Shown: positions 28,731 to 54,094 of the stretch, one piece after another
Layout of the letters: each line of letters opens with the position of its first letter
Position numbering within the stretch: the first letter of the stretch is position 1
Virus record (IMG/VR): IMGVR_UViG_3300018059_000002
Coordinates: 1 to 54,094 of that record
DNA: 54,094 nt
DNA from: a virus
Strand: one strand, 5' to 3'
Notes under the pieces: model-generated
What the model was told of the DNA's origin: nothing
Databases searched by the model: none
Seen by the model: only the letters and a program-made list of their open reading frames with translations
Translations under genes and position numbers: made by a program

Positions 28731-28750
28731 CTCTTCACCTCTTGCCCATT

Positions 28751-28804: not shown

Positions 28805-28814
28805 CGGGACTCAG

Positions 28815-31100: not shown

Positions 31101-31101
31101 T

Positions 31102-31635: not shown

Positions 31636-32480
31636 CGGGTGGCTAGGATGAGGTCGATAGCCGCTTCAACGTTTGGCACAAGGTGTGGCATATTGCCTAG
31701 TACTTGCAATGATGGTGCGCCACCTTGCGCCACGCACTGATTTACTTCGTCCGGCGATATGCGGTTCGCGGAACGCGCCCCCGTGATCTTACGGACGAGC
31801 GCCCGAAAAGGGTCAAGGGCTGCTGGCGCTTGGGCTGTATTAGCTTCGGGTACAGACGGTACCGAGGGAGACACCGGAGCGGCAGCCCCCGCCGGTAGCG
31901 GCGCGTGACCAAATAAATCTGCGGGATTCGGTACGGGTGGAGCCGTCGGGACGCCGGGCACAGGTACTACAGGAACAACCGGCACAGTCACTTTGCGAAT
32001 GCGCGGTGCTAGTTCTTGCATCACAGCCGTTACAACTGCTTCGTTAATGCCTTTTTGGATTTTCCAAGTACCATCTTTCTTTTTGTTCTTAGATTTTTGG
32101 TGTATGCGCGCATCGAAGGGGATACCGCTATCATCGTATTCGTCAGCGGTCACTGAGGCAACGGGAGCCGAAGGCGTCGGGGTCGAAACAATAGATGTTG
32201 TCATAGGCGCAGGCGGGGCCGGAGGTGCTAAAGGGCCGTTGTTGTTCATATCCTGTTGCGCGCGTTCCAAATCGGCCGGGTGAAAATCACCAGCGGGCGG
32301 CGCGGGGGGAACGTCGGGCATAGGATGAGCGGCGGGAACCGATGCGCACAGGGTCACCTTAGCAGGCGCTTGACCGACACCGGTTTGATATTCTTTCAAT
32401 TCGGCATGGTCCATAAGAAACTGCGCAGCAAGGCGTAACGCGGCGGGCGTATCGGCTAGAATGTCGATCATTAGTTGCAC
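31632..32480 (-). CDS. Pro/Ala-rich hypothetical protein
   Basis: 282 aa with a GTG start at 32480 (GGAG 8 nt upstream; ATG at 32471 is an alternative). It has low-complexity PPAPP tracts and a conserved-looking DSGIPFDARIHQKSKNKKKDGTWKIQKG segment. Confidence 0.55.
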   Translation of the reverse strand: MQLMIDILADTPAALRLAAQFLMDHAELKEYQTGVGQAPAKVTLCASVPAAHPMPDVPPAPPAGDFHPADLERAQQDMNNNGPLAPPAPPAPMTTSIVSTPTPSAPVASVTADEYDDSGIPFDARIHQKSKNKKKDGTWKIQKGINEAVVTAVMQELAPRIRKVTVPVVPVVPVPGVPTAPPVPNPADLFGHAPLPAGAAAPVSPSVPSVPEANTAQAPAALDPFRALVRKITGARSANRISPDEVNQCVAQGGAPSLQVLGNMPHLVPNVEAAIDLILATR

Positions 32481-34446: not shown

Positions 34447-34802
34447 CAATGACCGCAGGCGGATTAGTAAAGCTAATCGAAGAGTGCGGCGAGCTTACGC
34501 AGATATGTGCAAAAAAACTCGCCTACTACCACACTGACACGCACCCGGACGACAAGGGGCAGATGTCCGGCCGTATCGAAGACGAAATTGCCGACGTGTA
34601 TGCGGCTGCCGCCTTCGTTATGGAGAAATTCAAACTTAACGAAAACCGGGTAATAAAACGCGCCGATGAAAAACTCGCTAAGCTAAAAGAGTGGGACGCA
34701 GACCCTACCAACCAACGAGAGGGATACAGGACACCACAAAACTTTATTGATTGTGAGGCTTGTGGGTTCTCACATCCTGCCGGCATGGCGTGCCCCGTAT
34801 GA
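34443..34802 (+). CDS. mazG: MazG-like nucleotide pyrophosphohydrolase
   Basis: 119 aa. LIEECGELTQICAKK...RIEDEIADVYAAAAFV matches the EExGE...E..ADV pattern of the MazG family. Confidence 0.6.
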   Translation: MTMTAGGLVKLIEECGELTQICAKKLAYYHTDTHPDDKGQMSGRIEDEIADVYAAAAFVMEKFKLNENRVIKRADEKLAKLKEWDADPTNQREGYRTPQNFIDCEACGFSHPAGMACPV

Positions 34803-35308
34803 ACTTGCAAGAATGGGCCGCGCGTTGGAATATACCCGCCGAAGCCTTCCGGGAACTTGTAGCCTGTAGTATTGTTCCGCCGGAGCCTGACGAAGTCGTC
34901 GGAACAAAATCAGAAGCCTACGTACAATCAACTGTACGTCTTGCGGCACCAGGACGTGGTATTTATTTATGGCGTAACCAAGTTGGAGCGGGTATTGTAG
35001 CTAACGCTCGCGACCTATGCCACGAATGCGTACAAAAGGCACGCCGGCCTATTCGTTGGGGCTTAGGAAACGATAGCAAAAAACAAAACGATGTGATGAA
35101 ATCTGCCGACCTAATCGGGATTGAGAAAAAACTAATCACTCCTGACATGGTCGGCAGTTACATCGGAAAGTTCCATTCTGTGGAAACAAAACACGAAGAC
35201 TGGAAGTACTCAGGGACGGCCGAAGAGAATGCGCAGCTAGCTTGGGCGACCTTGATTAACTCACTTGGCGGCGAGGCTAAGATTGTCAAACACGCCTCGT
35301 CACTATAG
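34799..35308 (+). CDS. VRR-NUC domain nuclease
   Basis: Start trimmed to ATG 34799 (ATGA overlap). SEAYVQSTV...WRNQVGAG...SADLIGIE...SVETKHED...AQLAWATLINSLGGEAKIV fits the VRR-NUC PD-(D/E)XK pattern. Confidence 0.65.
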   Translation: MNLQEWAARWNIPAEAFRELVACSIVPPEPDEVVGTKSEAYVQSTVRLAAPGRGIYLWRNQVGAGIVANARDLCHECVQKARRPIRWGLGNDSKKQNDVMKSADLIGIEKKLITPDMVGSYIGKFHSVETKHEDWKYSGTAEENAQLAWATLINSLGGEAKIVKHASSL

Positions 35309-35320
35309 GATCACTAGACT

Positions 35321-35620
35321 ATGACTGTACCTAATAAAACCTCTAAACCCGCCATTCTCAGCGCAGCAATTAAGCTCGCAAGTAAGGTTGGGCTTTTTCA
35401 ATTTTCGCGGGTTGACGTTGCCGCTGAGGCGAATGTAGGCGAATCGACTGTGTCGTATCATTTCGGCACGATGCCCGAGCTACGCACCGCAATCGTGAAG
35501 CATGCAGTCGAGCACGAAATTATGAAAATTCTAGCCGATGCTCGCGCGGGGCGCGAATCCGTGGGCGTGCCTATGAGCGCGACGCTAAGGAAGAAAATCG
35601 CGAAATTCATCGCAGAATAA
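35321..35620 (+). CDS. Stand-alone TetR-N-type HTH DNA-binding protein
   Basis: 99 aa. ILSAAIKLASKVGLFQFSRVDVAAEANVGESTVSYHFGTMPELRTAI matches the TetR_N HTH. At 99 aa it is too short to carry a ligand-binding domain. Confidence 0.6.
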   Translation: MTVPNKTSKPAILSAAIKLASKVGLFQFSRVDVAAEANVGESTVSYHFGTMPELRTAIVKHAVEHEIMKILADARAGRESVGVPMSATLRKKIAKFIAE

Positions 35621-35636
35621 TCCGCCTTCAACAAAA

Positions 35637-35667
35637 GGCCGACGGGGTCGCTAAACCTACGTCGGCC
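35637..35667 (+). terminator. Hairpin between the TetR-like and primase genes (attenuator/terminator candidate)
   Basis: GGCCGACG (35637-35644), a 15-nt loop, then CGTCGGCC (35660-35667). No clear U-run follows. Confidence 0.3.
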
Positions 35668-35687
35668 GAATCGGAGACACTGCGTGC

Positions 35688-38186
35688 ATGGCGGACTCTA
35701 GCGACATTCGCGGAGCGTTGTCAAACGTTCCCGCGTTCATCCTCTACCGACTGGTGCCTACAGTTGATGCCAAGGGCTACCCCAAGCTCGACAAAGTGCC
35801 CACAAGTCCGAACGGCGGCTACGATATTAACCCGCACGATTCGGCTGAATGGATGTTACCGGCGGACGCTCAGTTATGGGCTGACGTATTTAATGCGCAA
35901 CTGTTACCGCAAGGCGTCAGCGGATACGGTACCGGCGTCATCATCTCCGAAGACATCGTCTTGCCGAACGGCCGGCGCTTGTTCGCACTCGATATTGACA
36001 AATGCCGCGACGGCAACCAATGGGCACCGCATGCGCGCGCCTTCGTGGATAAGTTGTCGGGTGGCGGTGTCGAAGTCAGTGTAAGCGGTAATGGGTTACA
36101 CGTGTACGGCACATATGCCGGCGAGCGGCCGGACCACGGCACGCGTAATAAAACCTACGGCCTTGAGTTATACACACGGTTGCGTTTCATCGCTTGCACA
36201 GGCTTAGGCGCTGCCGGTGATCCTCTCAAAGACTTGACGCGCGAACTGCACGCGCTAGTCGAATATTTCCCCGCCCACGATGTCGAAGATTACGACGGCG
36301 AGTTGACGACCAAACCTGTTGTGGAGTGGTCCGGTCCTGACGATGACGACGAGCTACTGCGCAGAGCAATGAGGTCTCACAGCGGTGCAAGCGTCTTTGG
36401 TGGCAAGGCTGCCTTCGCCGATTTATGGAATGCTAACGTCGCTGTACTTGCTCGCGTGTTTCCGCCGCAACAACACGGACAATATGACGCTAGCGCCGCC
36501 GATCAAGCTTTGTGTAATCATTTAGCATTCTGGACCGGCAACCACGGCGAACGCATGTTGCGCCTGTTGTATCGATCGGCACTCGTGCGTAACAAGTGGG
36601 AGCGGCCTGGATATCTCCTCGGAACCGTACAGCGCGCTTGCGGTTCGCAGAAACAATGGTATAAAGATTCCCGGAGCAACGTGTCTCCGGGTCAGATGGC
36701 TTACGTTGCAGCCGCATGTCTGACCCTCGGCACCTCCGATGCGGTGACGCCGGCAACGCCTAGTGCGACCGTCGCACCCTCGGAGGGCGTCGTTCCTCAA
36801 TCCACGCCGTACGATCCTAGTAAGCCGATTCCGCCGGGCACGCGTCCGCCTATCGGCGATTATCTTACCGAAGCGCAACAGGTTGCTTTATTTGATGGCT
36901 GCGTCTATGTGCAAGATATCCATCAAGCCATAATGCCTCAAGGGCACACACTCAGCTCAGAGAAATTCGACGCAGAGTTCAGCGGGTACACATTCGCAGT
37001 GAAACCTGATGGGCAACAGCCTGCTAAACGCGCATGGGAAGCGTTTGTGTTTTCAGAAATCCACGCTTTCCCGAAAGTCAAAGGCATGTACTTCGATCCG
37101 CGCCAACCATCGCGCAAGATCATAGAGCGCGAGGGATCAACGCTAATCAATTCGTACGTCCCATCGGTTATCATTCGTAAATCAGGTGATGTATCGCCGT
37201 TCCTAACACACCTGTACAAACTCTTACCGCTTGGAAATGACGCACAAATTCTGCTGGCTTATTTCGCTGCCTGCGTTCAACACGCCGGCGATAAATTCCA
37301 ATGGTGGCCGTTGATCCAGGGTGTAGAAGGCAATGGCAAAACTACGCTAAGTCACTTATTGCAGTACGCCGTTGGGCGTCGGTACACCCATTGGCCTAAA
37401 GCCGCCGAGCTAGGCTCAAAGTTTAATAGCGCATTCTACGGTAAGCTGCTGATATGTTGTGAAGACGTTTATATTTCCGAATCGCGCGGCTCATTGTGGG
37501 AAGCCTTAAAACCCATGATCACCGGCATAGAGTTGGAAATCGAAGGCAAGGGCGTAGACAAGGTTACCCGAGAGGTTTGCTTTAACGGCGTGATGAACTC
37601 AAATCACAAAAACGCCATTCGCAAAACGGCTAACGATCGACGAGTAGGGCCGTTCTTCTGTGCTCAACAATCAAAAGCCGATCTGATGCGCGACGGGTTG
37701 ACCAAAGATTATTTTATTGCGCTGAAAGCGTGGCGCGAAGGTGAAGGCCGCGAGATTGTCGCCGATTATTTGATGCGCTACGAAATCCCGGACGAACTGA
37801 ACCCAGCACGTCGTTGCATCGTTTGCCCTGACACCACGGCCACACGGGAAGCGATTAGCGCCGGCCTTGGTGCAGCCGAGCAGGAAGTGATTGAGGCTAT
37901 TTCACAGGGTACAGCAGGCTTCCGCGGCGGTTGGGTGTCATCAAGCGCCCTGGACCGTCTGCTCGCCAACATCGGCAAAGGGTCCAGCATACCCCGCAAC
38001 AAGCGCCGGGAGATGTTAGACACCCTCGGCTATACGCCACATCCGGGCTTACCAGACGGCCGCGCTACGGTCAACGACACCGACGGCACCCGACCCTACC
38101 TGTATGTGCTTCAGACAACACCCGGAGCCTCTGAGCGTAACCCACACGCAATTATGAGCCTGTATCAAGCGGCACAGAAAGGTTAG
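35688..38186 (+). CDS. Primase-polymerase / SF3 helicase fusion (P4 alpha / D5-like)
   Basis: 832 aa. The N-terminus LFALDIDKCRDG...VSVSGNGLHVYG is prim-pol-like. The C-terminus has Walker A (GVEGNGKTTL) and Walker B (LLICCEDV). Confidence 0.8.
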   Translation: MADSSDIRGALSNVPAFILYRLVPTVDAKGYPKLDKVPTSPNGGYDINPHDSAEWMLPADAQLWADVFNAQLLPQGVSGYGTGVIISEDIVLPNGRRLFALDIDKCRDGNQWAPHARAFVDKLSGGGVEVSVSGNGLHVYGTYAGERPDHGTRNKTYGLELYTRLRFIACTGLGAAGDPLKDLTRELHALVEYFPAHDVEDYDGELTTKPVVEWSGPDDDDELLRRAMRSHSGASVFGGKAAFADLWNANVAVLARVFPPQQHGQYDASAADQALCNHLAFWTGNHGERMLRLLYRSALVRNKWERPGYLLGTVQRACGSQKQWYKDSRSNVSPGQMAYVAAACLTLGTSDAVTPATPSATVAPSEGVVPQSTPYDPSKPIPPGTRPPIGDYLTEAQQVALFDGCVYVQDIHQAIMPQGHTLSSEKFDAEFSGYTFAVKPDGQQPAKRAWEAFVFSEIHAFPKVKGMYFDPRQPSRKIIEREGSTLINSYVPSVIIRKSGDVSPFLTHLYKLLPLGNDAQILLAYFAACVQHAGDKFQWWPLIQGVEGNGKTTLSHLLQYAVGRRYTHWPKAAELGSKFNSAFYGKLLICCEDVYISESRGSLWEALKPMITGIELEIEGKGVDKVTREVCFNGVMNSNHKNAIRKTANDRRVGPFFCAQQSKADLMRDGLTKDYFIALKAWREGEGREIVADYLMRYEIPDELNPARRCIVCPDTTATREAISAGLGAAEQEVIEAISQGTAGFRGGWVSSSALDRLLANIGKGSSIPRNKRREMLDTLGYTPHPGLPDGRATVNDTDGTRPYLYVLQTTPGASERNPHAIMSLYQAAQKG

Positions 38187-38391: not shown

Positions 38392-38724
38392 CTAATCGTC
38401 AGGGCTAGGTGCGTAGTCACACCTAGCCTTTAGTGATGGGTACGTACTGCATCGGCGATGCGGATGTGGATTACCCAAGCAAAAGCATGTAGTCGCCCTG
38501 GACTCGAATTTAGCCGTGCGGTACCAGTCAATCCACCACACGTCGCGCTTGCCCTCTGCCCGCGCCCTGCGGCTTTTACGGCACCCACAGTGCGGCAAGC
38601 AGATATAGTTTTCAGGCTTCATTGAAAACGTGCGCCGACGGAAACAATATCTGCATCGAACCCGATAGCGTTTGTATATCTTACGTCTCTGCGCGCTGTA
38701 GTTGCGCCAAGGCCGCGCGCTCAT
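38392..38724 (-). CDS. Basic Cys-rich hypothetical protein
   Basis: 110 aa, Arg/Cys-rich. Its ATG overlaps the HNH gene stop (ATGA). The true C-terminus is uncertain because of the terminal hairpin. Confidence 0.4.
   Translation of the reverse strand: MSARPWRNYSAQRRKIYKRYRVRCRYCFRRRTFSMKPENYICLPHCGCRKSRRARAEGKRDVWWIDWYRTAKFESRATTCFCLGNPHPHRRCSTYPSLKARCDYAPSPDD
38404..38432 (+). terminator. Hairpin at the convergence of the + island and the leftward genes
   Basis: ggctaggtg (38404-38412), an 8-nt loop, cacctagcc (38421-38429), then ttt. It overlaps the 3' end of track ORF 38392..38724. Confidence 0.35.
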
Positions 38725-39128
38725 GTAAACAGCCTGAACTGTTCATAACGCTGCAACAGTGATTCAGGCTCGTCAAACCATATGTTGCTTTCGGCGTAAT
38801 TTTCCCATTCGGTCAATATTTTAATATTCCAGGGAACGTTGAGCCCGCACACCTTGTGGTGACTGAGAGGCACGATGTGAGCGAGCACATGCTTGACGCC
38901 CGTTTGTCGGGTTCGCAGGTCGCGAGTTTTCACCAATGACCAAAAGTCGCGTTCTTTGATCCATGGGGGCGACGCTAAGACCGCACGTTCAATGTAAAAA
39001 CGCCGGGGGTGCCTTACCAACCAATCGGGCCGCGCGTTCTTTGTGATGGCTTTGCGAAGCGACGCGCGGCTAGCGTATTTGTGAATTCCCATAAAAGTGA
39101 TTTCATTAGTCGCGATAGGTGAAACCAT
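38721..39128 (-). CDS. HNH-type endonuclease-like protein
   Basis: 135 aa. HVLAHIVPLSHHKVCGLNVPWNIKILTEWENYAESN fits an H-N-N/H beta-beta-alpha-metal motif. Confidence 0.5.
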   Translation of the reverse strand: MVSPIATNEITFMGIHKYASRASLRKAITKNARPDWLVRHPRRFYIERAVLASPPWIKERDFWSLVKTRDLRTRQTGVKHVLAHIVPLSHHKVCGLNVPWNIKILTEWENYAESNIWFDEPESLLQRYEQFRLFT

Positions 39129-39228
39129 CGGTTATCCACCACGCCCATGCGACGTAAAGAATAATGATCAGGCAGCATAGGCCAGAAATTGCGACGCACA
39201 GTTTCAGTAGAAAAAAGAGCGTCGACAT
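39106..39228 (-). CDS. Candidate 40-aa membrane micro-protein
   Basis: Not in the ORF track (under 60 aa). GAGG lies 5 nt upstream of ATG 39228. It encodes MSTLFFLLKLCVAISGLCCLIIILYVAWAWWITDGFTYRD. Confidence 0.25.
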   Translation of the reverse strand: MSTLFFLLKLCVAISGLCCLIIILYVAWAWWITDGFTYRD

Positions 39229-39280
39229 ATGGACCTCAGACAGCGGGCATGTGAACCATGTCACATATTTTGCGCGTATC

Positions 39281-39296
39281 CTGACGAGGTCGTCAA
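39281..39296. promoter_or_regulatory. Degenerate dyad copy (CTGACGAGGTCGTCAA)
   Basis: A 15/16 match to the cassette dyad, in the ORF-poor gap 39129-39567. The flanking -35 and -10 hexamers are poor. Confidence 0.25.
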
Positions 39297-39372
39297 CTCT
39301 TCATTTTAGGTTTGGTTGGGTAGCCTGCGACGAGAGATTCGCGCAACGCCTTTCGGCAATAGCTAGGGCCAC

Positions 39373-39495
39373 TCATTCAGGGTCGTCTTCGTCGTAAGGT
39401 TTATCTGAGTAAAGGGGGTCATCTGTGAGCAATGCGAAAGCCAAGACACACATTACGCCAATCCCCAAAACGATAAGACCGATGACACGCAGCAT
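39373..39495 (-). CDS. Candidate 40-aa membrane micro-protein
   Basis: Not in the ORF track. It encodes MLRVIGLIVLGIGVMCVLAFALLTDDPLYSDKPYDEDDPE, one TM segment plus an acidic tail. Confidence 0.25.
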   Translation of the reverse strand: MLRVIGLIVLGIGVMCVLAFALLTDDPLYSDKPYDEDDPE

Positions 39496-39567
39496 AACTT
39501 TGCCTTCGACATGAATTGTGAACCCGACCACAATTTTGTGTCAGGCTGACAACGCCGTCAATACAAA

Positions 39568-39762
39568 TTAACCTCTTAAACGCTGTTTATCGATTATTGT
39601 TGAGTAACCTTTTTCGCGTTCGTTTAGCCAATCAACGGTTGATATATAGTCTGCCGTAGCATAAACGATACGACGCGTAGTGCGATGTAATTTAACATCG
39701 AGGATCATTGGATAGCCGCCATCAGACTGTGGGCCTATGATTAGTTTATAACGCTCAGACAT
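39568..39762 (-). CDS. Hypothetical protein
   Basis: 64-aa ORF of balanced composition, tightly spaced after the upstream gene. Confidence 0.5.
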   Translation of the reverse strand: MSERYKLIIGPQSDGGYPMILDVKLHRTTRRIVYATADYISTVDWLNEREKGYSTIIDKQRLRG

Positions 39763-39764
39763 AA

Positions 39765-40247
39765 TTAAAACCCCATTCTCAAACCAAGTTGATAGTTGCC
39801 GCGCACCGCGTTAGCTGCATCCAAGATTGTGAGGGTTTGCCATGTGCGGCACACCCAACGCGGTGCGCGCTCATCTAACATATTCGTGACGAACGCGTGA
39901 CCATATGCGGTACCCATATACCACACTGCGACTTGACCTGTCGTAGGGTGATTAGGCAGCATCCAGCTTGACTCACTATAGCGCTCCGGCTGGTTAGCGA
40001 TTTGCAACGTTTGGAGACCATCGACCGCATGGGTGACTTGATATGCGACCTCTAGCTGGCGATTTTCGGTTGACCACTGCCGGTCGAACTGCACGCAACC
40101 CTGCATCATCAACAAGACCAACGGCAGAATGATTGCGATCACTACAAACGAACCATATCGCATGTCGATAAATAGAAGCACAAAAAGCAGCATTGCAATA
40201 AATTGACCGGGGTGCGCGGCGAAGTAGATTGAGATGACGTTAAACAT
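39765..40247 (-). CDS. Multi-pass membrane protein
   Basis: Start trimmed to ATG 40247 (TAATG overlap). There are at least three hydrophobic segments (ISIYFAAHPGQFIAMLLFVLLFI and FVVIAIILPLVLLMM). Confidence 0.55.
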   Translation of the reverse strand: MFNVISIYFAAHPGQFIAMLLFVLLFIDMRYGSFVVIAIILPLVLLMMQGCVQFDRQWSTENRQLEVAYQVTHAVDGLQTLQIANQPERYSESSWMLPNHPTTGQVAVWYMGTAYGHAFVTNMLDERAPRWVCRTWQTLTILDAANAVRGNYQLGLRMGF

Positions 40248-40591
40248 TACGGTGATCCTCGGCATGATGTAGGGTAAAGACGACTTACGGCTTCCCAAAA
40301 TGCTAAGGCGGCCCTATCGACATCGCCGTTAATATTTATTTTGCCGTCGGGGTGAATCACTACACGCGGTTTGCCATGTGGGCTATCGCCGTAAATAATG
40401 ATATCGCCGGCAACCGCCGAGACGGATAGAACCGTAGTTAATCTTTCATCTTGCGGGATTGTTAAACGTTTTGCACTCGTAACGACCTCGTCAGCGTGCG
40501 TCTGCTCCCCGAACAGCAACACGCCCACAGCGAAACATAAGAAGCCGAGATTTTCAGCTTTCTGCCGAATTGTTTGTCGGCGGCGCTTCAT
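40247..40591 (-). CDS. Signal-anchored/exported protein
   Basis: 114 aa. The N-terminus MKRRRQTIRQKAENLGFLCFAVGVLLFG is basic followed by a hydrophobic stretch. Confidence 0.55.
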   Translation of the reverse strand: MKRRRQTIRQKAENLGFLCFAVGVLLFGEQTHADEVVTSAKRLTIPQDERLTTVLSVSAVAGDIIIYGDSPHGKPRVVIHPDGKININGDVDRAALAFWEAVSRLYPTSCRGSP

Positions 40592-40731
40592 GTTTTTGTG
40601 ACTTCTTTAACAACGAAACCATCATCTAAGCAGTACTTGATGAACGCGGCGCACTCTTTCCACGTAGTAAACCTATTACGGCTGCCGCTGCCGTAATAAA
40701 CGTGATACACAAATGTTTTACGCTTGCTCAT
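40588..40731 (-). CDS. Candidate 47-aa protein
   Basis: Not in the ORF track. It encodes MSKRKTFVYHVYYGSGSRNRFTTWKECAAFIKYCLDDGFVVKEVTKT and has ATGA overlaps at both ends. Confidence 0.35.
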   Translation of the reverse strand: MSKRKTFVYHVYYGSGSRNRFTTWKECAAFIKYCLDDGFVVKEVTKT

Positions 40732-40814
40732 ACAAATAGCTTCCCTTCGTTACAATAATCGGCAACAACAATAGCAAGAGCGATCAAGGCGGCAAGGGTG
40801 GTGAAGGTCATCAT
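40728..40814 (-). CDS. Candidate 28-aa hydrophobic peptide
   Basis: Not in the ORF track. It encodes MMTFTTLAALIALAIVVADYCNEGKLFV, with GGAG upstream. It is the first ORF after cassette E5. Confidence 0.25.
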   Translation of the reverse strand: MMTFTTLAALIALAIVVADYCNEGKLFV

Positions 40815-40850
40815 GGCGGCGGCTCCTAAGTGGTTACAATGTGGCTCTAC

Positions 40851-40892
40851 TGTATACCTGACGACCTCGTCAGTCTAGCGACTTACGTCACA
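40851..40892 (-). promoter_or_regulatory. Early promoter-operator cassette E5 (weak -35)
   Basis: Minus strand: TGTGACGT box (40892-40885), perfect dyad (40873-40858), then TATACA (40856-40851). The -35 position reads GCTAGA. Confidence 0.4.
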
Positions 40893-41271
40893 ATTTCATC
40901 GTGTTGGGTATCGGACCTTTGAACTCGGGCCACTCTGAGGTATCACCTTTGCTCCAAGCTCGCAAAAACCACACGGCTTCCCCCGGATCGAAGGGGTCCG
41001 ATAATTTTAAAGCGTATTCGATTGCAGCGTTGTACTGCTGGCGCATAGCTTCTACGGCTTCATTGCGCAGGTCTGATTGAATAGGATCACCTTGCATTAC
41101 ATCGCGTACCGCACAACCCGAACGCACAAGCGAGGGAGTAAGAACGGGTTTTTTTGGGGGAAGTTGTTCGGCATACACTTCGGGTATATCTTCCCACGCG
41201 CCAAGCTCGTGATTGAAGTGTTGTAAACGAGCCGAAGCTAGAGTCATTAACATACGAATTTCATATGCCAT
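40888..41271 (-). CDS. Hypothetical protein
   Basis: 127-aa ORF. Its stop TGA lies inside the TGTGACG box of cassette E5. Confidence 0.55.
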   Translation of the reverse strand: MAYEIRMLMTLASARLQHFNHELGAWEDIPEVYAEQLPPKKPVLTPSLVRSGCAVRDVMQGDPIQSDLRNEAVEAMRQQYNAAIEYALKLSDPFDPGEAVWFLRAWSKGDTSEWPEFKGPIPNTMKL

Positions 41272-41446
41272 AAATTTTGTCCCATAGGTAAAAGGTGACC
41301 GCCGAATTTTTCACGGCATGGTGTAATGTGTACCGATATAAACGCCAGTTTTCCAGCTTCCAGCACCCAATCCGCACATATACGGCGGCAAGTTCTACGT
41401 CAGTAGGATTAAACTTTTGAGGGAATCGAATCTCTGCGAGTCTCAT
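41261..41446 (-). CDS. Hypothetical protein
   Basis: 61-aa ORF whose ATG overlaps the upstream gene end by 4 nt. Confidence 0.45.
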   Translation of the reverse strand: MRLAEIRFPQKFNPTDVELAAVYVRIGCWKLENWRLYRYTLHHAVKNSAVTFYLWDKIYGI

Positions 41447-41664
41447 AGCGGCCCCTTGCGTGCGGCAAAAATTTTATCCGACAGTTTGCGAGTCGCCGCG
41501 CCATGATATCGGCACAATTCACCTTGTGTACTCGTAGTCCAGATACTTAGGATTTCGCCGGATTCTAAAGCATAGGCAACACCAGCTTTGTACATTGCGA
41601 CGGCTTGTTTGCTCGTCCAGCGCCCCGGCAGCGGGCCGAGGCGTGACGTTATGGCGTAAATCAT
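41443..41664 (-). CDS. Hypothetical protein
   Basis: 73-aa ORF with GAAGG upstream. It is the first gene after cassette E2. Confidence 0.55.
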   Translation of the reverse strand: MIYAITSRLGPLPGRWTSKQAVAMYKAGVAYALESGEILSIWTTSTQGELCRYHGAATRKLSDKIFAARKGPL

Positions 41665-41680
41665 AATGCAGCCTTCGTTG

Positions 41681-41741
41681 CGTTCAGTGTGGAGTTATCT
41701 TAACTGACGAGGTCGTCAGGATTCAAGTGCACTGCGTCACA
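41681..41741 (-). promoter_or_regulatory. Early promoter-operator cassette E2
   Basis: Minus strand: TGTGACGC (41741-41734), TTGAAT (41726-41721), an 18-nt spacer with the dyad (41719-41704), TAAGAT (41702-41697), then the leader CTCCACACTGAACG (41694-41681). Confidence 0.6.
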
Positions 41742-41900
41742 GTATTTGCAGTCGCAGCCCTTGCGGCATACCACACTGTTAATCTGCAAGCGGTCAGTAT
41801 CCGCAAATACGTCGCGCGGGTAACGCCGAGGCGCATGCGGATCATCAGGCGTCAAACCTTTCATCCCCAATGATTCAAAATCGCACATAGGACCGCTCAC
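41700..41900 (-). CDS. Small Cys-rich protein
   Basis: 66 aa with CRKGCDCKYC. The C-terminal PDDLVS and the TAA stop are encoded by the E2 dyad and -10 hexamer. Confidence 0.5.
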   Translation of the reverse strand: MSGPMCDFESLGMKGLTPDDPHAPRRYPRDVFADTDRLQINSVVCRKGCDCKYCDAVHLNPDDLVS

Positions 41901-42117
41901 ACACTAGCATTATCTCGCGGGTATCAAGAGGCACACATCCGCTGGCTTTCACCGCCTTCGTGATTGTCGCGATAGGCGTGCCGGCGCAAATCGCTTTGGT
42001 AACGTAAGGCGTTGCCTCCCACGTCTCGCGCATCTGCCGGCATTCTTGAGGGACCACCGGTAGTATTAACATCGTGTCGGTACTGCTAACGTGCATCCAA
42101 ATAATTAACGCCCACAT
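41875..42117 (-). CDS. Hypothetical protein
   Basis: 80-aa ORF that overlaps both neighbouring ORFs by 13 to 26 nt, so the start is uncertain. Confidence 0.4.
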   Translation of the reverse strand: MWALIIWMHVSSTDTMLILPVVPQECRQMRETWEATPYVTKAICAGTPIATITKAVKASGCVPLDTREIMLVCERSYVRF

Positions 42118-42329
42118 GCGAGTAAATCCTTATATCGTAGAGGTTGAGTAAGTTTGTTCATAGGTGAGTAGTCGAAACTGTGGGTACGAGGCGAGCCCGC
42201 GACCAACGTTTCAGGTTCGTCAGTGTACGCTTGAATCCTACCGTCGATCACGACGGCCCACAGTTTCATCGTTTGCGAATCGTGGACGCGGCGCGGTTGG
42301 ACTTGGAAAAAGCGTATTGCGGTGTTCAT
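42105..42329 (-). CDS. Hypothetical protein
   Basis: 74-aa ORF. Its ATG lies only 8 nt downstream of the E7 -10 hexamer, which suggests a near-leaderless mRNA. Confidence 0.5.
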   Translation of the reverse strand: MNTAIRFFQVQPRRVHDSQTMKLWAVVIDGRIQAYTDEPETLVAGSPRTHSFDYSPMNKLTQPLRYKDLLACGR

Positions 42330-42337
42330 GGGGCTGT

Positions 42338-42380
42338 ATCGTACTGACGGTGTCGTCAGGTATCCGCGTGATGCGTCACA
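42338..42380 (-). promoter_or_regulatory. Early promoter-operator cassette E7 (variant dyad)
   Basis: Minus strand: TGTGACGC (42380-42373), the dyad CTGACGACACCGTCAG (42359-42344), then TACGAT (42343-42338). Confidence 0.4.
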
Positions 42381-42482
42381 GTTTGAATGTTTAGGGTTGA
42401 TGACGCTTGCGACTGCGCGAATTCTTCGCCGCTAGCCTCACGAGCGCCCCGCAGTGGTTCAAATTCACAAGCATCATCAACC

Positions 42483-42522
42483 ATAAACACACGGGGGCTG
42501 GGGGAACCAAAACCCCCGTGTG
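42483..42522 (-). terminator. Intrinsic terminator after the sigma/partner operon
   Basis: Minus strand: CACACGGGGG (42522-42513), a 15-nt loop, CCCCCGTGTG (42497-42488), then TTTAT. It begins 15 nt after the stop at 42537. Confidence 0.6.
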
Positions 42523-42536
42523 ACACTGTAACGGAA

Positions 42537-43040
42537 TTATAATTTGTCGATTGTTGCACCTCCTTTTTCGTTAATAAAAATTCCGACATTTTCCATATCT
42601 CGTTGGCTTTTCTTTACTCTCTTACGCGCCGCAATCGCCAAGTTAGCTACCCGTTTTAAATGGCCGGAGAGTATTAATGCTTGATCGGGGTCAAGCGCTA
42701 TGTGGCGTACAGGAGCCTGCCAATCAATCAGCACTTGCATTGCTCTACTCACACCGACTTGATATTTGAGTTCGGGCGTTGCTGACAGTTCCGATGGCTT
42801 TGCAGATGTCGTATCATTGACTATTGCTTTTAATCCGCCATCTACGCCGGGTACACCTTCGTGATACAATTTGTCGCGAGCGCGTTGGGCTTGCTCCGGG
42901 GTGATTTCAGATAACCTCAATCCTTGTGCTTTAAGTAATGCGACACGATGCATTGGCTTCTTAGGGCACATTGGACACCACGAATCGGAGAATTCACCGC
43001 AATCGGTGTGTTTGATAGGACACGCATAGATAATCATCAT
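42537..43040 (-). CDS. Cys-rich protein translationally coupled to the sigma factor (anti-sigma candidate)
   Basis: 167 aa. Its ATG overlaps the sigma gene stop (ATGA). The N-terminus is CPIKHTDCGEFSDSWCPMCP. Function inferred only from the gene pairing. Confidence 0.3.
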   Translation of the reverse strand: MMIIYACPIKHTDCGEFSDSWCPMCPKKPMHRVALLKAQGLRLSEITPEQAQRARDKLYHEGVPGVDGGLKAIVNDTTSAKPSELSATPELKYQVGVSRAMQVLIDWQAPVRHIALDPDQALILSGHLKRVANLAIAARKRVKKSQRDMENVGIFINEKGGATIDKL

Positions 43041-43534
43041 TTGGCCTTTTTAAGAGTCTTGTGTACTTCACGTAATCCGAGCGCGATATGATGTTCTACC
43101 GTCTTTTCGCTTAAATGGTACTTCTTAGCGAGCTGTCGATAGGAAGCGCCAAAAAAGACACGTTGCGAAAACACCGCTTTACATCGTGGAGGTAGTAAAT
43201 TAATTGCTTTACGCAGCGCTTCGGTTTGTTCTAAACGGATCAACAATTCATCGGCCGGCTCGTTGGCCGCTAACATTTCCGCAAAGTCATCGCAACGATC
43301 AAACTGTACTAACCTATCGTGTCGACAGGAATCCAAAGCCATGCGTTTCGCAACTGTGAATAGGAAAGCCCGAGGTATTTCTAACTTATCCATATTCACT
43401 AGCGTTTTTATAAATGCCTCTTGTGCAATGTCGCTGGCAGTTTCATCAGAATGCACGAAACGCTTGATGTAACGACACAAGTCATTGTAGCTACTGACGA
43501 ACAAGTTAGTTACTGAGTCTTTGATAGCCATCAC
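43037..43534 (-). CDS. ECF-type (FecI-like) sigma-70 family factor
   Basis: 165 aa. Region 2 reads DIAQEAFIKTL...PRAFLFTVAKRMALDSCRHDR and region 4 reads LPPRCKAVFSQRVFFGASYRQLAKKYHLSEKTVEHHIALGLREV. Confidence 0.75.
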   Translation of the reverse strand: MMAIKDSVTNLFVSSYNDLCRYIKRFVHSDETASDIAQEAFIKTLVNMDKLEIPRAFLFTVAKRMALDSCRHDRLVQFDRCDDFAEMLAANEPADELLIRLEQTEALRKAINLLPPRCKAVFSQRVFFGASYRQLAKKYHLSEKTVEHHIALGLREVHKTLKKAK

Positions 43535-43552
43535 ACCACCTCGTTTTAAAGA

Positions 43553-43786
43553 TCAGGCGATATTCCCAAACCGGTGCTCCGATTTCTTCCGCTTCACTGT
43601 AGGTTGGGGCATACGCATCCACTCAATAACGTTGAGCCACTCCACACTATCGCAACCGACGGTATCGAAGTGCTCGCCGTGTCTATCAGTATGTGTACGT
43701 TTCGCGTGTCCAACTTCTTTACCATCGGACACCAAGACCTCAGCGCCATAAGGAGGCACACCTTTCTTAATATTTGTCCATCTCAT
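43553..43786 (-). CDS. Hypothetical protein (DUF551-like?)
   Basis: 77 aa. W-x-N-x4-PP-x3-VLV at the N-terminus loosely recalls DUF551. Confidence 0.35.
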   Translation of the reverse strand: MRWTNIKKGVPPYGAEVLVSDGKEVGHAKRTHTDRHGEHFDTVGCDSVEWLNVIEWMRMPQPTVKRKKSEHRFGNIA

Positions 43787-44586
43787 AGTAAGCCTGCTTT
43801 CGTTAGTGATTGAACCAAGGGTGACTTAGGGCGTTTGATGTGTCGCAGCGGTTCCCATAGCTGATTGGCGTCACGCGCCTCTTGCTCGATGATACCGGTG
43901 CGGCTACGACGTTCGGGCCGCGCCGGGCGTGTTATACGTCCGTGTGGGCACATGATTGTTTCAAACCCGCGACGAAAACCGCGCGTTGTATAAGGACGGT
44001 CCTCAATCGCTTCAATCACAGCATCAAAACCTTTCTTGCCGCCGATACGCGCAGTGTCACCCACTTTCCAATCACGCGACTCTAAGTCTTCAACGCGATA
44101 CGCCGGCGCTTTGTTGTCGAAAATTTTCGCGGCCCACTCTTGCATTTGTTGCTTGAGCATTAATGAGTGGCGCGCCGTAGCTTCCGATTTGTAAATTTCC
44201 GTTTTCACAGCACGCAATTGATACTCTTCGGAGCATTCGGCAAACGGTACGATCTTCATTTCGCTTGCGGTATAAGTGCGGTTACCGCGCTTTACAACAG
44301 CCTTAACATACTCGCCGTTCCATGCTTCAAGCGGCGTGCACGTGCCGGCTTTCAACTCTTCGACTTTGGCGGTTGCAGCTTGAGCGCGTTCAAAATATCT
44401 TGAAATCACCCCGTCGGTAAGCGCACGTGAGATGTGCAGTGAAGGTTCGCTGGAACCGGGGCAAGTACCGTTAAAATAGCCATGTACCACATCATAGCCG
44501 TGCTTCGCGATCAACCCGGTTTGTGTGTCAATCGCCTGTACACGCAAGCAACATTGACAATGTCCTCTGTGCGTGTGAGTGCTCAT
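43783..44586 (-). CDS. Hypothetical protein
   Basis: 267-aa ORF. It begins MSTHTH, using the same 16 nt as the upstream gene start. Confidence 0.6.
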   Translation of the reverse strand: MSTHTHRGHCQCCLRVQAIDTQTGLIAKHGYDVVHGYFNGTCPGSSEPSLHISRALTDGVISRYFERAQAATAKVEELKAGTCTPLEAWNGEYVKAVVKRGNRTYTASEMKIVPFAECSEEYQLRAVKTEIYKSEATARHSLMLKQQMQEWAAKIFDNKAPAYRVEDLESRDWKVGDTARIGGKKGFDAVIEAIEDRPYTTRGFRRGFETIMCPHGRITRPARPERRSRTGIIEQEARDANQLWEPLRHIKRPKSPLVQSLTKAGLL

Positions 44587-44819
44587 TGTTTACTATTTCC
44601 GTCAGTTTCGATTAAAGGGGTTGCAACACAACGACAATTGAAATGCTGCGGCGGTCTCGGCCGATTTCTTTCGGCAATCGCCTTTAGCAAACGGCGGCGA
44701 TATAGAAAATCAGGTTCCAACCCAAACCAACGACGAGGCAAGCCAAAAGCCTCCCCAATGCGCGTTAGATAAACATCTTTGGCTTTCCGTGTGTACCCTT
44801 CGCGCGTGTGAGTGCTCAT
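44583..44819 (-). CDS. Hypothetical protein
   Basis: 78-aa ORF that begins MSTHTR, with ATGA overlaps at both ends. Confidence 0.55.
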   Translation of the reverse strand: MSTHTREGYTRKAKDVYLTRIGEAFGLPRRWFGLEPDFLYRRRLLKAIAERNRPRPPQHFNCRCVATPLIETDGNSKQ

Positions 44820-44974
44820 GCTTGAATCACTCCATAAAGGCTATTATGGCCTTTGTGCCAAATCTCAACATTGTTACGCAACTCGTAGCAGCAACCGTTC
44901 CTGTTGAGATGAGCAAGAAAGGATTCTACAGATTCAATAACTTGCACAAGCATCCCGGTAGTAATAACTTGCAT
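44816..44974 (-). CDS. Candidate 52-aa protein
   Basis: Not in the ORF track. It encodes MQVITTGMLVQVIESVESFLAHLNRNGCCYELRNNVEIWHKGHNSLYGVIQA. It is the first ORF after cassette E3, and its stop overlaps the next ATG. Confidence 0.4.
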   Translation of the reverse strand: MQVITTGMLVQVIESVESFLAHLNRNGCCYELRNNVEIWHKGHNSLYGVIQA

Positions 44975-44990
44975 GGTGCAGCCCTCGTTG

Positions 44991-45052
44991 CGTTTCAGTG
45001 TGGAGCTATCTTAGCCTGACGAGGTCGTCAGTGTAAAGTGACTTGCGTCACA
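44991..45052 (-). promoter_or_regulatory. Early promoter-operator cassette E3
   Basis: Minus strand: TGTGACGCAAGTCACT (45052-45037), TTTACA (45037-45032), an 18-nt spacer with the dyad (45031-45016), TAAGAT (45013-45008), then the leader CTCCACACTGAAACG (45005-44991). Confidence 0.6.
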
Positions 45053-45228
45053 ATTTCTACTAACTGGCCATAATCGTTAGTCACCCATTTAGTTTTAGGA
45101 AAACCAACACAGCCGCCGCGCCACTCTTGCAAATAAGAGAACCACGTAAATACCCAAATCTCGCTTGTATGGGCTGCGAGGTATTCAAATAGGTACAAAC
45201 GACGGCCGGTAAAAAAACGCATTTTCAT
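45028..45228 (-). CDS. Hypothetical protein
   Basis: The track ORF starts at 45258, directly abutting the E4 -10 hexamer. I prefer ATG 45228 (MKMRFF...), which has AAAGG upstream. Confidence 0.45.
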   Translation of the reverse strand: MKMRFFTGRRLYLFEYLAAHTSEIWVFTWFSYLQEWRGGCVGFPKTKWVTNDYGQLVEIVTQVTLH

Positions 45229-45242
45229 AATGTCGACCTTTT

Positions 45243-45302
45243 CGTTCAGTGTGTTCATACTATACTGACGACCTCGTCAGGATACAAGAGGACCCCGTCA
45301 CA
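45243..45302 (-). promoter_or_regulatory. Early promoter-operator cassette E4
   Basis: Minus strand: TGTGACGG (45302-45295), TTGTAT (45287-45282), a 17-nt spacer with the dyad (45280-45265), TATAGT (45264-45259), then the leader CACACTGAACG (45253-45243). Confidence 0.6.
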
Positions 45303-45328
45303 AAAAAACGCCCCGGTTATGGGGCGTT
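45302..45328 (-). terminator. Rho-independent terminator
   Basis: Minus strand: AACGCCCC (45328-45321), a 6-nt loop, GGGGCGTT (45314-45307), then TTTTT (45306-45302). It runs directly into the TGTGACGG box of E4. Confidence 0.75.
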
Positions 45329-45351
45329 GAAAAGGGAGCAATGTCAAATAA

Positions 45352-45693
45352 TTATGCGTGCGGCTGACCATCACCAGGGTGATCCGCTTCCGATACAGGC
45401 GGCTTACGTTTGGTTCCTTTGGAAGGTGGCGTTGATTCAGGTGGCGTTGATTCAGGTGGCGTTGATTCACTGCTTAACACAACATCTTCAACGTGTGAAC
45501 TTTCGTCGACAATGATGCTGCTTGTAGGCTCGCACATCAGCGCGGTACGTTCGGCTTCAACAGCAGCATTCTGCACCTCTTGTACGGCAGCCTCTAGGCG
45601 TTCAATCGCCTGCGAGCCTAACATAGCCGGTTTGGTATAACGTTGAATCAAGGCCAGCAACGCCGCACGTGCGGCTTGTATTCGTTCGCTCAT
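45352..45693 (-). CDS. Hypothetical protein with ESTPP x3 tandem repeat
   Basis: 113-aa ORF with AAGGAG upstream. It contains the 15-bp x 3 repeat in frame. Confidence 0.55.
   Translation of the reverse strand: MSERIQAARAALLALIQRYTKPAMLGSQAIERLEAAVQEVQNAAVEAERTALMCEPTSSIIVDESSHVEDVVLSSESTPPESTPPESTPPSKGTKRKPPVSEADHPGDGQPHA
45425..45469. repeat. Perfect tandem repeat, 15 bp x 3 (ggtggcgttgattca)
   Basis: Read directly: the copies are at 45425-45439, 45440-45454 and 45455-45469. They encode ESTPP three times on the minus strand. Confidence 0.95.
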
Positions 45694-45765
45694 AAAAAGG
45701 CTCCTTAAAGTGTAGATGAAAACGTCCGCAGGCTACCACATCTTCAAATCTGACGCCCCTGTCGA

Positions 45766-46095
45766 TCAATAAGAAGGTGCCCATTGATCGCGCGGCCGTT
45801 CGGTTACAGGCGTCCAGCAGTATAAGCTGTCAGGATTCCACGGTAATGACATGTCGCGGATGTAGTAGCGCGTGTGGTGATTAAAATCATGCGAGCTACC
45901 ATCAAGCATTTGTGCACGTATAAATGCTAACGCCGTCTTACGTAGATGAAAGCCCCTTTTCGATAGAGGCACCGCAACGCCTCGGCTGTTAACCCAGTAC
46001 ACACCGTAAGGACGTTTTAAACGCATCCCAGGCGATTGTTCAAGGCCGACAGGCTCTTCGGTCGGCTTAAAGAATCCTATATCCCCGCTGCTCAT
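45766..46095 (-). CDS. Hypothetical protein
   Basis: 109-aa ORF whose ATG overlaps the upstream stop by 4 nt. Confidence 0.55.
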   Translation of the reverse strand: MSSGDIGFFKPTEEPVGLEQSPGMRLKRPYGVYWVNSRGVAVPLSKRGFHLRKTALAFIRAQMLDGSSHDFNHHTRYYIRDMSLPWNPDSLYCWTPVTERPRDQWAPSY

Positions 46096-46400
46096 TGTTG
46101 CCCCCGGTTGTGCTTGTAAAACGCTTCAATGCATTGTTGCAAGTAGGTTTCTAATGCGCCGAATTCGGCTTGTGTACTGTCGGAAGGCACCCACAACTTA
46201 GGGCATATGTATGCTGACAAGTCTTTGCGGAAGGGGTGCCGACGCGGTAGATACCGATTCATGCACGCTACGCAGCCACCGCCCGACACGTAGCGTTGAT
46301 CGACATGCCCTTGTTTGCAAGGCTTACCTGTAAAGAACTTTATGCGGCCCTGCGTGTAAGCCTGTTCGCGGGTGATTAGCTCGTGTGCTTGTGTGGTCAT
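46092..46400 (-). CDS. Small Cys-containing (Zn-finger-like) protein, first gene of the leftward arm
   Basis: 102 aa. FFTGKPCKQGHVDQRYVSGGGCVAC is a motif I recall from many proteobacterial phage ORFs of unknown function. Confidence 0.5.
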   Translation of the reverse strand: MTTQAHELITREQAYTQGRIKFFTGKPCKQGHVDQRYVSGGGCVACMNRYLPRRHPFRKDLSAYICPKLWVPSDSTQAEFGALETYLQQCIEAFYKHNRGQQ

Positions 46401-46482: not shown

Positions 46483-46681
46483 CGCCGTCCCGACTATAGG
46501 CGTTTTTCATCCCCTTTTGGCTGTCCTATAAATGAATAGTTAGATATCCTTTTAACTTGCATCTTGTGTCTTCTTCTTCTACTAAATAAATATAAATTCG
46601 CATCAAGAGTAAACATCTAAATAACTATTCATTTATAGGACAGCCAAAAGGGGATGAAAAACGCCTATAGTCGGGACGGCG
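46483..46681. repeat. Perfect 60-bp inverted repeat (46483-46542 / 46622-46681) around a 79-bp AT-rich core
   Basis: I checked all 60 pairs by hand and found no mismatch. The core (46543-46621) is far more AT-rich than the rest of the genome and contains TTGCAT, 17 nt, TACTAA (46557-46585, + strand). Confidence 0.95.
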
Positions 46682-46790
46682 CGCAGGATGTTCTACGCTA
46701 ACGGTAGGATTCGTTTCGTATGCTTGATGTGGGCGCGACGTAGCGCAGCGCTAACGCTAGAAACTAATAAAAACTAAATGGTGCAATATG

Positions 46791-46820
46791 TTGCGCTAGG
46801 CATTGTGGGTGTTGTAGGGT
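46791..46820 (+). promoter_or_regulatory. Candidate late promoter immediately upstream of terS
   Basis: TTGCGC (46791-46796), an 18-nt spacer, TAGGGT (46815-46820), then 7 nt to ATG 46828. The site at 51118-51147 has the same layout. Confidence 0.3.
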
Positions 46821-53786: not shown

Positions 53787-53980
53787 ACCTGCACGACCGC
53801 GCCGAGTTCGAGAAGCAACTCACGCGATACCTAAGCGCACACAACACGCTGCGCGAGCATAACGCGCGGGTCGACCTTGTTAACTGGGTGGCCAAATACG
53901 CCGATGAACAAGTTGCGGCGACTGTGCGCCTTGCGTGGGGCGTGCCTACATCAATCGAAGACAGTTTAGGCGGCCCCTAG
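53783..53980 (+). CDS. Hypothetical protein
   Basis: Start trimmed to ATG 53783 (ATGA overlap; MNLHDRAEFEKQL...). The stop TAG lies inside the terminal repeat. Confidence 0.45.
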   Translation: MNLHDRAEFEKQLTRYLSAHNTLREHNARVDLVNWVAKYADEQVAATVRLAWGVPTSIEDSLGGP

Positions 53981-54094
53981 CATTCACCATAACGGCGCGC
54001 TACACTCGCGCCCCATGCTTGCCTTTGATCGCTCAGTATTAGATCGTGATGTGATTGCGCTGGATCGTGCAAGCGCGCGTACGTTTGACGCTGA
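53975..54094. repeat. Direct terminal repeat, right copy (identical to 1..120)
   Basis: Same 120 nt as 1-120. It contains the stop of ORF 53783..53980 and the ATG (54015, equivalent to 41) of the scaffold-like gene. Confidence 0.95.

Follow-up and report, generated by a model that had tools for sequence, protein, structure and literature searches.

The 54,094-nucleotide stretch of viral DNA that we analyzed in full (IMG/VR record IMGVR_UViG_3300018059_000002, hereafter the window) carries, within a block of small early genes on its minus strand, a gene for a predicted extracytoplasmic function (ECF) sigma factor, the end of which overlaps the start of a downstream gene for a 167-residue protein (hereafter the partner). 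We consider it likely that this sigma factor is part of an accessory cassette and not a core switch of the phage, and that the partner is a conserved early protein acting independently of the sigma factor. The window is a complete, circular, myovirus-like phage genome of about 54 kb, in which an exact 120-nt repeat (1-120 = 53975-54094) leaves a true length of 53,974 bp, confirming that the sigma gene is phage-encoded, as the first-pass annotation of this DNA had proposed.

The identity of the sigma factor is carried by its domains. Pfam Sigma70_r2 matches residues 13-73 (1.5e-9, 38 bits versus a cut-off of 24) and Sigma70_r4_2 matches residues 105-155 (9e-11, 41.7 bits versus a cut-off of 25.7), and the protein is also matched by TIGR02937, sigma70-ECF (1.7e-22, 79.8 bits versus a cut-off of 42.9), and by PHROG 1740, “RNA polymerase sigma factor” (5.8e-16). 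The ECF region 2 and region 4.2 signatures recognized by the first-pass annotation are therefore upheld, and the hidden Markov model (HMM) search for sigma families that it proposed returned clear matches, far beyond chance, and not a blank. No matches to region 1.1 or region 3 were found in the protein, and a length of 164-165 amino acids with region 2 and region 4.2 only is the ECF architecture. A search of the PDB using a profile of the phage sigma clade returned structures of SigW, SigH, SigL and SigE. The likelier start of the gene is the ATG at 43531 (164 amino acids), which is preceded by GAGGTGG and is used by the gene callers of public assemblies (P0003). By its domain content, this open reading frame (ORF) is an intact two-domain ECF (group IV) sigma factor of a FecI-like lineage. 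The motifs DIAQEAF, PRAFLFTVA and SEKTVEHHIA are kept across four phage sigma homologues, and this conservation argues for a functional sigma factor, one that would bind core RNA polymerase and initiate transcription at specific promoters.

The accessory role that we propose is suggested by a comparison with four sister phages, L001 (53.6 kb), L005, L006 and L091, whose core genes are comparably related to those of the window. For example, identity to the window is 80-89% for terL (L001, L006), 72-83% for the primase and 88-93% for the DNA polymerase (contigs of L005 and L006, with the L005 contig at 93%), and the sigma-less colinear sisters share 74-77% nucleotide identity with the window over the structural genes. 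L091 was found by an exhaustive sigma profile search, and L005 and L006 were found via w267, the gene upstream of the cassette; the sister sequence covered comprises approximately 90% of one genome, and the early region and flanks of the others. A further contig, L002, is a duplicate of the window. Homologues of w267 that are 59-67% identical to it are present in all four sisters and, judged from these loci, w267 is the ancestral upstream neighbor of the partner gene. The window and L091 are the only phages with both a sigma and a partner gene, and w77, a small gene directly upstream of sigma in both (77% identity), is found only in these two and is absent from L001, L005 and L006 (Table 1). 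When six-frame translations of approximately 60 loci related by w267, DNA polymerase or tape measure were searched with an HMM of the sigma clade, no sigma gene was identified except in L091, and the same search found none in the sister reconstructed to 90%. In all loci examined with this HMM, sigma is present only in the window/L002, L091, the phages L003 and L004/L024, and bacterial loci. Since the sigma gene is absent from colinear sisters, it is probably an optional add-on and not a core gene of the lineage, and by these presence and absence patterns we class sigma and w77 as an optional accessory cassette of approximately 0.75 kb at an ATGA junction of the early operon. A different gene in L005, and an extra 56-amino-acid gene in L091, are located at the same junction, which marks it as recombination-prone.

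Several observations on the genes around this junction stand beside these results. Early-gene modules are swapped at stop/start overlaps of the form ..TTACTATGA|G.., located at 43783-43786 and 43037-43040 in the window, at ~10001 in L001, at 4600 and 4812 in L005, at 8798 in L006, and at 7597 and 7764 in L091, and ATGA junctions may serve as recombination joints for accessory genes. In L005, w267 is followed by a homologue of the 78-amino-acid gene found at 44583-44819 in the window (motif RRWFGLEPDFL). The N-terminal ~60 amino acids of w267 form a His/Cys-rich module, HTHRGHCQxCLRxQAID...HGY..H..F.G.CPGS, which at least 19 IMG/VR contigs encode at the start of proteins that are otherwise unlike, and which looks like a widespread phage domain (PHROG 17208).

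The sigma clade is small, with seven cluster representatives (50% identity) at <=1e-30 among the 1.84 billion searched, and its phage members are carried by phages of different kinds. A homologue 68% identical to the window sigma is present in L003, a phage that is unrelated to the window phage and encodes a Mu-type portal, an Sf6-type terS and RecT, and in which the sigma gene stands last in its row, facing a convergent VRR-NUC gene. A second, 48% identical, is present in another unrelated phage, L004/L024, where the genes behind it are DUF7352 and CsrA-like. The homologue in L091, a phage of the same group as the window, is 54% identical, i.e., below that of the unrelated L003; this difference supports horizontal exchange, and by these identities the sigma gene is one that has been exchanged among unrelated phages. 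No homologues of the partner or of w77 were found in L003 or L004/L024. In L004, a near-consensus extended -10 sigma70 promoter belonging to the sigma gene itself is located at ~9934-9975 (ATTGAAT..TGCTATAAT).

The next-best profile matches that can be placed on contigs (P0157, P0012) are 32-34% identical to the window sigma and belong to cellular operons encoding a sigma factor, FecR (DUF4880 plus FecR) and a TonB receptor (L092, L093). Identity of the window sigma to cellular sigma factors is 32-38%, with PRAFLF..A and S.KTVE.HIA shared with the FecI-type cellular relatives; among 185,579 species genomes scanned, none had a match of more than 35% identity, and tblastn against GenBank phages returned only matches of 25-27% identity. 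The best specific NCBIfam model is the Bacteroidetes-type TIGR02985, which stays under threshold (1.2e-28, 100.3 bits versus a cut-off of 126.4), followed by the unnamed sigma-factor models PRK12527 and PRK12525, with the FecI models lower and their thresholds not reached (NF041727 ECF_sigma_FecI, 38.2 bits versus 260; PRK09651, 39.6 versus 185). Pfam searches of the downstream ORF and four neighbors of sigma gave no match to FecR, DUF4880 or a TonB receptor. The description “FecI-like” in the earlier annotation is thus right for the lineage, as the nearest cellular relatives lie in FecI-FecR-TonB operons, and the window sigma is not a member by the FecI model thresholds or by a FecR/receptor context.

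The first-pass annotation had read the sigma gene and the gene behind it as a co-translated sigma/anti-sigma pair, the second protein carrying a zinc-binding anti-sigma domain. The features on which this was based are present: the sigma stop overlaps the ATG of the 167-amino-acid ORF (AAATGATGA) as ATGA, or as TGATG should translation begin at the second Met, and residues 10-27 of the partner contain a Cys/His cluster (KHTDCGEFSDSWCPMCP); the four-Cys motif here (Table 1) most likely forms a small zinc ribbon or knuckle. If the two were a cognate pair, the partner would sequester the sigma factor through this N-terminal domain until a signal arrives, and several facts fit: the two genes overlap in both sigma-carrying phages, in the cellular relatives an overlapping gene behind sigma encodes the anti-sigma FecR, and the window partner has the Cys cluster together with a unique helical N-terminal extension. 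However, the partner family, present in five phages (the window and its four sisters), is kept in three that lack sigma (L001, L005, L006), and the sigma homologues of L003 (68%) and L004/L024 (48%) have no partner beside them. The partner core, through ...KGGATxD, is kept with or without sigma. In addition, sigma and the Cys motif occur in every combination, with both in the window, sigma without the motif in L091, the motif without sigma in L006, and neither in L001, a pattern that makes their presence independent of one another. Overlaps of the ATGA type are found at 16 of the 76 same-strand junctions of the genome, at 7 of 24 in the early block, and at four consecutive junctions in the unit containing sigma; being this frequent, the overlap of sigma and partner carries no specific information.

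Searches with the partner sequence also fail to support an anti-sigma function. None of four partner-family members matched an anti-sigma model in Pfam, NCBIfam or PHROG at E<=10 (zf-HC2, DUF4880, FecR and others), and the HxxxCxxC motif of zinc-binding anti-sigma (ZAS) domains is absent from the partner, where the spacing is Hx2Cx8Cx2C. The partner itself matched no family of any kind in these three databases. Profile searches of the PDB and Pfam with the partner family gave nothing below E~0.06, and in the PDB nothing below E~1. In a collection of 5.8 billion proteins, a single non-self homologue was found, P0002, encoded by the sister L001; a single-sequence pattern scan of IMG/VR for the partner found no homologue, and homologues were reached only via w267. 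A structure prediction for the partner, as suggested in the first-pass annotation, was made with AlphaFold2 from an alignment of two sequences, and the model obtained was unusable (predicted local distance difference test, pLDDT, 46). On these grounds, we judge an anti-sigma pair to be very unlikely. Our preferred reading, which we infer from this conservation, is that the phage group makes the partner as a conserved early protein whose function is independent of sigma and whose zinc-ribbon-like N-terminus is optional.

The partner family could also be a general early protein that binds RNA polymerase, comparable to gp79 or AsiA, and that in sigma-carrying phages also cooperates with the acquired sigma factor. 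The partner is present in all five phages and always in the early operon, the sigma gene was inserted directly upstream of it twice, and there is a precedent in phiEco32, where gp79 displaces sigma70 and stabilizes the phage sigma factor gp36 (PMC12276001). However, no sequence or structural likeness of the partner to a known RNA polymerase binder was found, with the partner model being unusable, and one shared insertion hotspot would explain the adjacency, so we regard this explanation as improbable.

The hairpin located behind the partner gene leads to a similar view. Its stem is a perfect 10 bp (CACACGGGGG, 42522-42513, and CCCCCGTGTG, 42497-42488) with a 15-nt loop, and it is kept after the partner gene in 5/5 phages whatever their sigma status, with three pairs showing compensatory changes. 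As it is present in all five phages, it belongs to the ancestral 3′ end of the partner gene and not a feature of the sigma/partner unit. The earlier annotation described a terminator belonging to the pair; the 10-bp stem exists where it was placed, with a weak U-tract that is not canonical (UUU only in the window, UGUU in the relatives), and it was not listed by a scan for consensus terminators. It may act as a terminator, an attenuator or an RNA-stability element, with a terminator function being plausible. A second, longer hairpin is found only in the window, where the RNA fold of 42360-42545 has a z of -7.6; it is absent from L005 and L006, in which the conserved hairpin abuts the next promoter, and it is a candidate small mobile element or regulatory RNA. 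The GAAC..CGT within 42388-42482 was considered as an ECF promoter and found to be unsupported, as it has a 14-nt spacer and the sole similar sites (31366-31438) lie inside a gene.

The early transcription units of the window share a promoter family that includes a 16-bp palindrome (CTGACGAnnTCGTCAG), present in 18 copies at <=2 mismatches versus 0.13 expected. Intergenic copies are located in the spacers of sigma70-like promoters, with the order TGTGACGCA, CTTGAA/TTGAC, palindrome, TAAGAT/TAGGAT, and a leader ..CCACACTGAACG. This palindrome/promoter family is kept in all sister phages, including those without sigma, which identifies these as host-sigma70 promoters with an operator for a phage regulator, and not as ECF targets. 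The palindrome is probably the operator of a phage regulator for nearly all early and middle units and for one site in the late operon. Two of the promoter candidates named in the first-pass annotation, a TGAAC-containing leader box and an element at 51118, are members of this sigma70-like/operator family and are also found in sigma-less sisters. The likely source of the sigma-containing transcript is the nearest upstream promoter, from which there is no intergenic gap of more than 25 nt up to the partner stop; the predicted unit contains a 52-amino-acid gene, a 78-amino-acid gene, w267, w77, sigma, partner and hairpin. Just after the promoter at 40858, a 28-amino-acid hydrophobic mini-ORF (MMTFTTLAALIALAIVVADYCNEGKLFV) is located at ~40729-40815 on the minus strand; it is kept in L091, with a further small membrane ORF, ATGA-coupled, behind its homologue.

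We searched for promoters of the sigma factor itself by pairwise alignment of intergenic regions, the approach recommended for phage sigma factors (PMC4331800). Within the window, nothing emerged but a large inverted repeat and the palindrome/sigma70 family, with no second promoter class, and a comparison of intergenic regions of the window, L091, L003, L004 and L024 gave chance-level matches only. The generic ECF patterns GAAC-N-TCGT and GGAAT-N-CGT were found at chance-level counts and only inside genes. An apparently conserved “intergenic” stretch specific to the window and L091 (40576-40844) proved to consist of small shared ORFs. This failure does not prove the absence of a phage target; taken together with the comparison of sister phages, these results make a global role of the phiEco32 kind unlikely.

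These searches bear on a further claim of the first-pass annotation, that the sigma factor drives the middle/late switch, which would send host core RNA polymerase to the promoters of the structural genes, as gp36 does in phiEco32 and its counterpart in phage 7-11. Phages of the phiEco32 type provide a precedent (PMC4331800, PMC12276001), the sigma gene of the window lies in an early operon divergent from the late genes, and the strong sigma70 promoter of its own in L004 is typical of an early regulator. However, the sigma gene is missing from the colinear sisters, at 74-77% nucleotide identity across the structural genes, and a stretch of ~60 nt before terS is kept whether or not a phage carries sigma. 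No low-copy conserved promoter motif is present in the window or common to L003, L004 and L091, and the generic ECF -35/-10 patterns are no more frequent than chance. We consider a middle/late switch unlikely. Within the region upstream of terS, at 46770-46800, the motif ATGTTGC(A), with a partial direct repeat GTTGC.ATATGTTGC, is found ~30 nt before terS in the window, L091, L001 and L006, and may be a late promoter or an activator site, in either case independent of sigma. A sigma54-type reading of this motif was rejected, since the GG-GC spacing is 11 and not 10 and L001 lacks the GG.

Under the accessory-cassette reading, which we favor, w77 and sigma would have entered a long early operon with coupled translation, joining it at ATGA stop/start junctions. 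Host RNA polymerase with sigma70 would transcribe this operon early, from operator-controlled promoters such as that at 45008-45037, and the sigma factor made in this way would bind host core RNA polymerase and divert part of it to promoters of phage accessory genes or of the host. As there is no FecR-type or other recognizable anti-sigma, the sigma factor would probably be constitutively active once made, and the overlap with the partner and the hairpin would be inherited or generic features of the operon. Several points weigh against this account. The sigma and partner genes overlap in both of the sigma-carrying phages, which leaves room for a link through the partner core, and the window partner alone has a helical segment of ~40 residues (residues ~28-70) behind the Cys motif. 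A very divergent non-ECF sigma factor could lie elsewhere in the partly covered sister genomes, and the distribution of sigma is compatible both with gain and with loss in three lineages. Finally, as no cognate promoter was found, the activity of the sigma factor and its targets are wholly inferred.

A more specific form of this account places the targets in the host. Here, the sigma factor would be a moron-like agent of host reprogramming that, free of FecR, switches on or titrates a FecI-type regulon of the host, a regulon that includes TonB-dependent receptors and iron uptake, with a change that benefits the phage or excludes competitors. The nearest cellular relatives of the sigma factor belong to FecI-FecR-TonB receptor systems, its distribution is patchy and accessory with exchange among unrelated phages, and the searches revealed no class of phage promoters for it, all of which would fit. 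Many FecI-type sigma factors, as in the Fec system of Escherichia coli, require FecR for activity, and none is present in the window. In addition, at 32-38% identity to cellular sigma factors, a promoter specificity shared with a host sigma factor is unproven. We offer host reprogramming as a tentative possibility of rather low probability, and are equally cautious about its broader form, a small FecI-derived clade that has left the FecR/TonB-receptor context and circulates among unrelated lytic phages as a stand-alone constitutive cassette (window, L091, L003, L004), not running the late program of the phage but hijacking the cell-surface-signaling regulon of the host, for example with a change in TonB-dependent receptor or iron-uptake expression in the infected cell.

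Table 1. Positions of the genes and elements discussed, and gene order at the equivalent locus of each phage
Feature	Position	Strand	Details
Sigma ORF	43037..43534	-	165 aa from the GTG at 43534
Partner ORF	42537..43040	-	167 aa; protein begins MMIIYACPIKHTDCGEFSDSWCPMCPKK
Partner Cys motif	42960..43022	-	CPx5CGx5WCxxCP; partner residues 7-27, four Cys
Conserved partner core	42621..42779	-	Residues ~88-140, YQVGVS..VLIDWQ..R..AL.P.QA..L.G.LKRVANLAI; from alignment, BLASTP versus P0002, and tblastn
w77	43553..43786	-	77 aa; ATG overlaps w267 stop (ATGA); weak family matches only
w267	43783..44586	-	267 aa; conserved early gene; PHROG 17208
Nearest upstream promoter of sigma	45008..45037	-	TTTACA-18-TAAGAT; palindrome in spacer; from promoter scan
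Operator palindrome of next promoter	42344..42359	-	Following unit begins; gene 42105-42329
Palindrome sites	22379, 23907, 32525, 32542, 34887, 39281, 40479, 40858, 41704, 42344, 45016, 45265, 51118		Plus coding copies
Conserved GC-rich hairpin	42488..42522	-	Right after partner stop; invariant GTTACAGTGTC in front
Long hairpin, window only	42388..42482	-	~95 nt, 18-bp stem; between conserved hairpin and next promoter
Window locus			w267 - w77 - sigma -ATGA- partner (167 aa); Cys motif present
L091 locus			w267 - 56-aa gene - w77 - sigma -ATGA- partner (91 aa); no Cys motif
L001 locus			w267 -ATGA- partner (122 aa); no sigma; no N-terminal Cys motif
L006 locus			w267 -ATGA- partner (138 aa); no sigma; Cys motif CPRNGMSCGTDSKLWCRDCP, spacing as in the window's CPIKHTDCGEFSDSWCPMCP
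L005 locus			w267 - 71-aa gene - partner (158 aa); no sigma; no N-terminal motif; other Cys cluster in C-terminal insert

The remainder of the window is that of a lytic, contractile-tailed phage. The late genes, on the plus strand, include terS (46828), terL, portal, a Mu-F-like head protein, protease, major capsid protein, tail sheath and tape measure, and the replication genes, encoding helicases, DNA polymerase, a single-stranded DNA-binding/annealing protein, exonuclease and primase, are on the minus strand at 22401-32480 and on the plus strand at 32734-38186; the early-gene block containing sigma spans 38392-46400 on the minus strand. A tRNA search of the window found none, and megablast of the region against GenBank phages found no near relative. 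The portal is <=46% identical to any match, with the best to Klebsiella, Pseudomonas and Aeromonas phages; from this, from promoters of the sigma70 type and from strong Shine-Dalgarno sites, the host is probably a proteobacterium. Between the divergent early operon and terS, at 46483-46681, there is a perfect inverted repeat of ~58 bp around an AT-rich core of ~85 bp, and L001 contains a comparable long inverted repeat of other sequence at the equivalent spot; the repeat may serve as an origin, as a pac site or as a cruciform with a regulatory role. The sole Rfam matches, below threshold, were plant microRNA precursor models on this repeat (46485-46678), and were rejected as spurious. A record of a related phage, also of 54,094 bp, IMGVR_UViG_3300005844_000028 (L009/L052), was considered as the window's own phage and rejected, since blastn against L009 gave no match and the DNA polymerase of L052 is 71% identical; the equality in length is apparently coincidental.

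Phage-encoded sigma factors are a classic route to the takeover of host transcription. To this theme, the window adds a rare phage-specific clade of FecI-type descent, without FecR, and as an exchangeable accessory gene. Should its targets prove to lie in the host genome, the sigma gene would count as a phage “moron” of a new type; with targets in the phage itself, it would illustrate how a sigma-dependent regulatory layer is bolted onto an existing sigma70-driven program. Phage sigma factors of the ECF type with known promoters, such as phiEco32 gp36, are useful orthogonal parts for synthetic biology. Our analysis also corrects a mis-annotation, in that adjacency, an ATGA overlap and a Cys cluster are insufficient to call an anti-sigma factor.

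Among known systems, phage 7-11 and phiEco32 encode ECF-like sigma factors (PMC4331800, PMC12276001), so that phage-borne ECF-like sigma factors as such are already known; what is new here is the rare clade, and its less usual traits are the FecI-type ancestry without FecR and the exchange of an optional gene. The window has in common with these phages an ECF-like sigma factor that is made early and works, or in the window would work, with the core RNA polymerase of the host, and for which a small protein of the phage has come under discussion as a partner (PMC4331800, PMC12276001). However, no sequence relationship to gp36 was detected, phiEco32 not being among the tblastn matches at 1e-5, and unlike gp36 the window sigma is dispensable at the level of the lineage, has no promoter family that we could find, and has a neighbor protein that is not sigma-specific. 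The sigma factors of PHROG 1740, and the “sigma-W factor” gene of the crAss-like phage cr118_1, are likewise phage-borne and ECF-like, with cr118_1 being distant at 27% identity. The ZAS domains of RsrA and ChrR (Pfam zf-HC2) similarly comprise an N-terminal Cys/His segment in a small protein encoded after an ECF sigma factor; in contrast, the partner has CPx5CGx5WCxxCP and no zf-HC2 match, and its motif is also found in a sigma-less phage. FecI-type cell-surface-signaling (CSS) sigma factors share the two-domain sigma2/sigma4 layout of the window sigma, but they come with FecR and a TonB-dependent transducer, whereas the window sigma is without both and is located in the early operon of a lytic phage.

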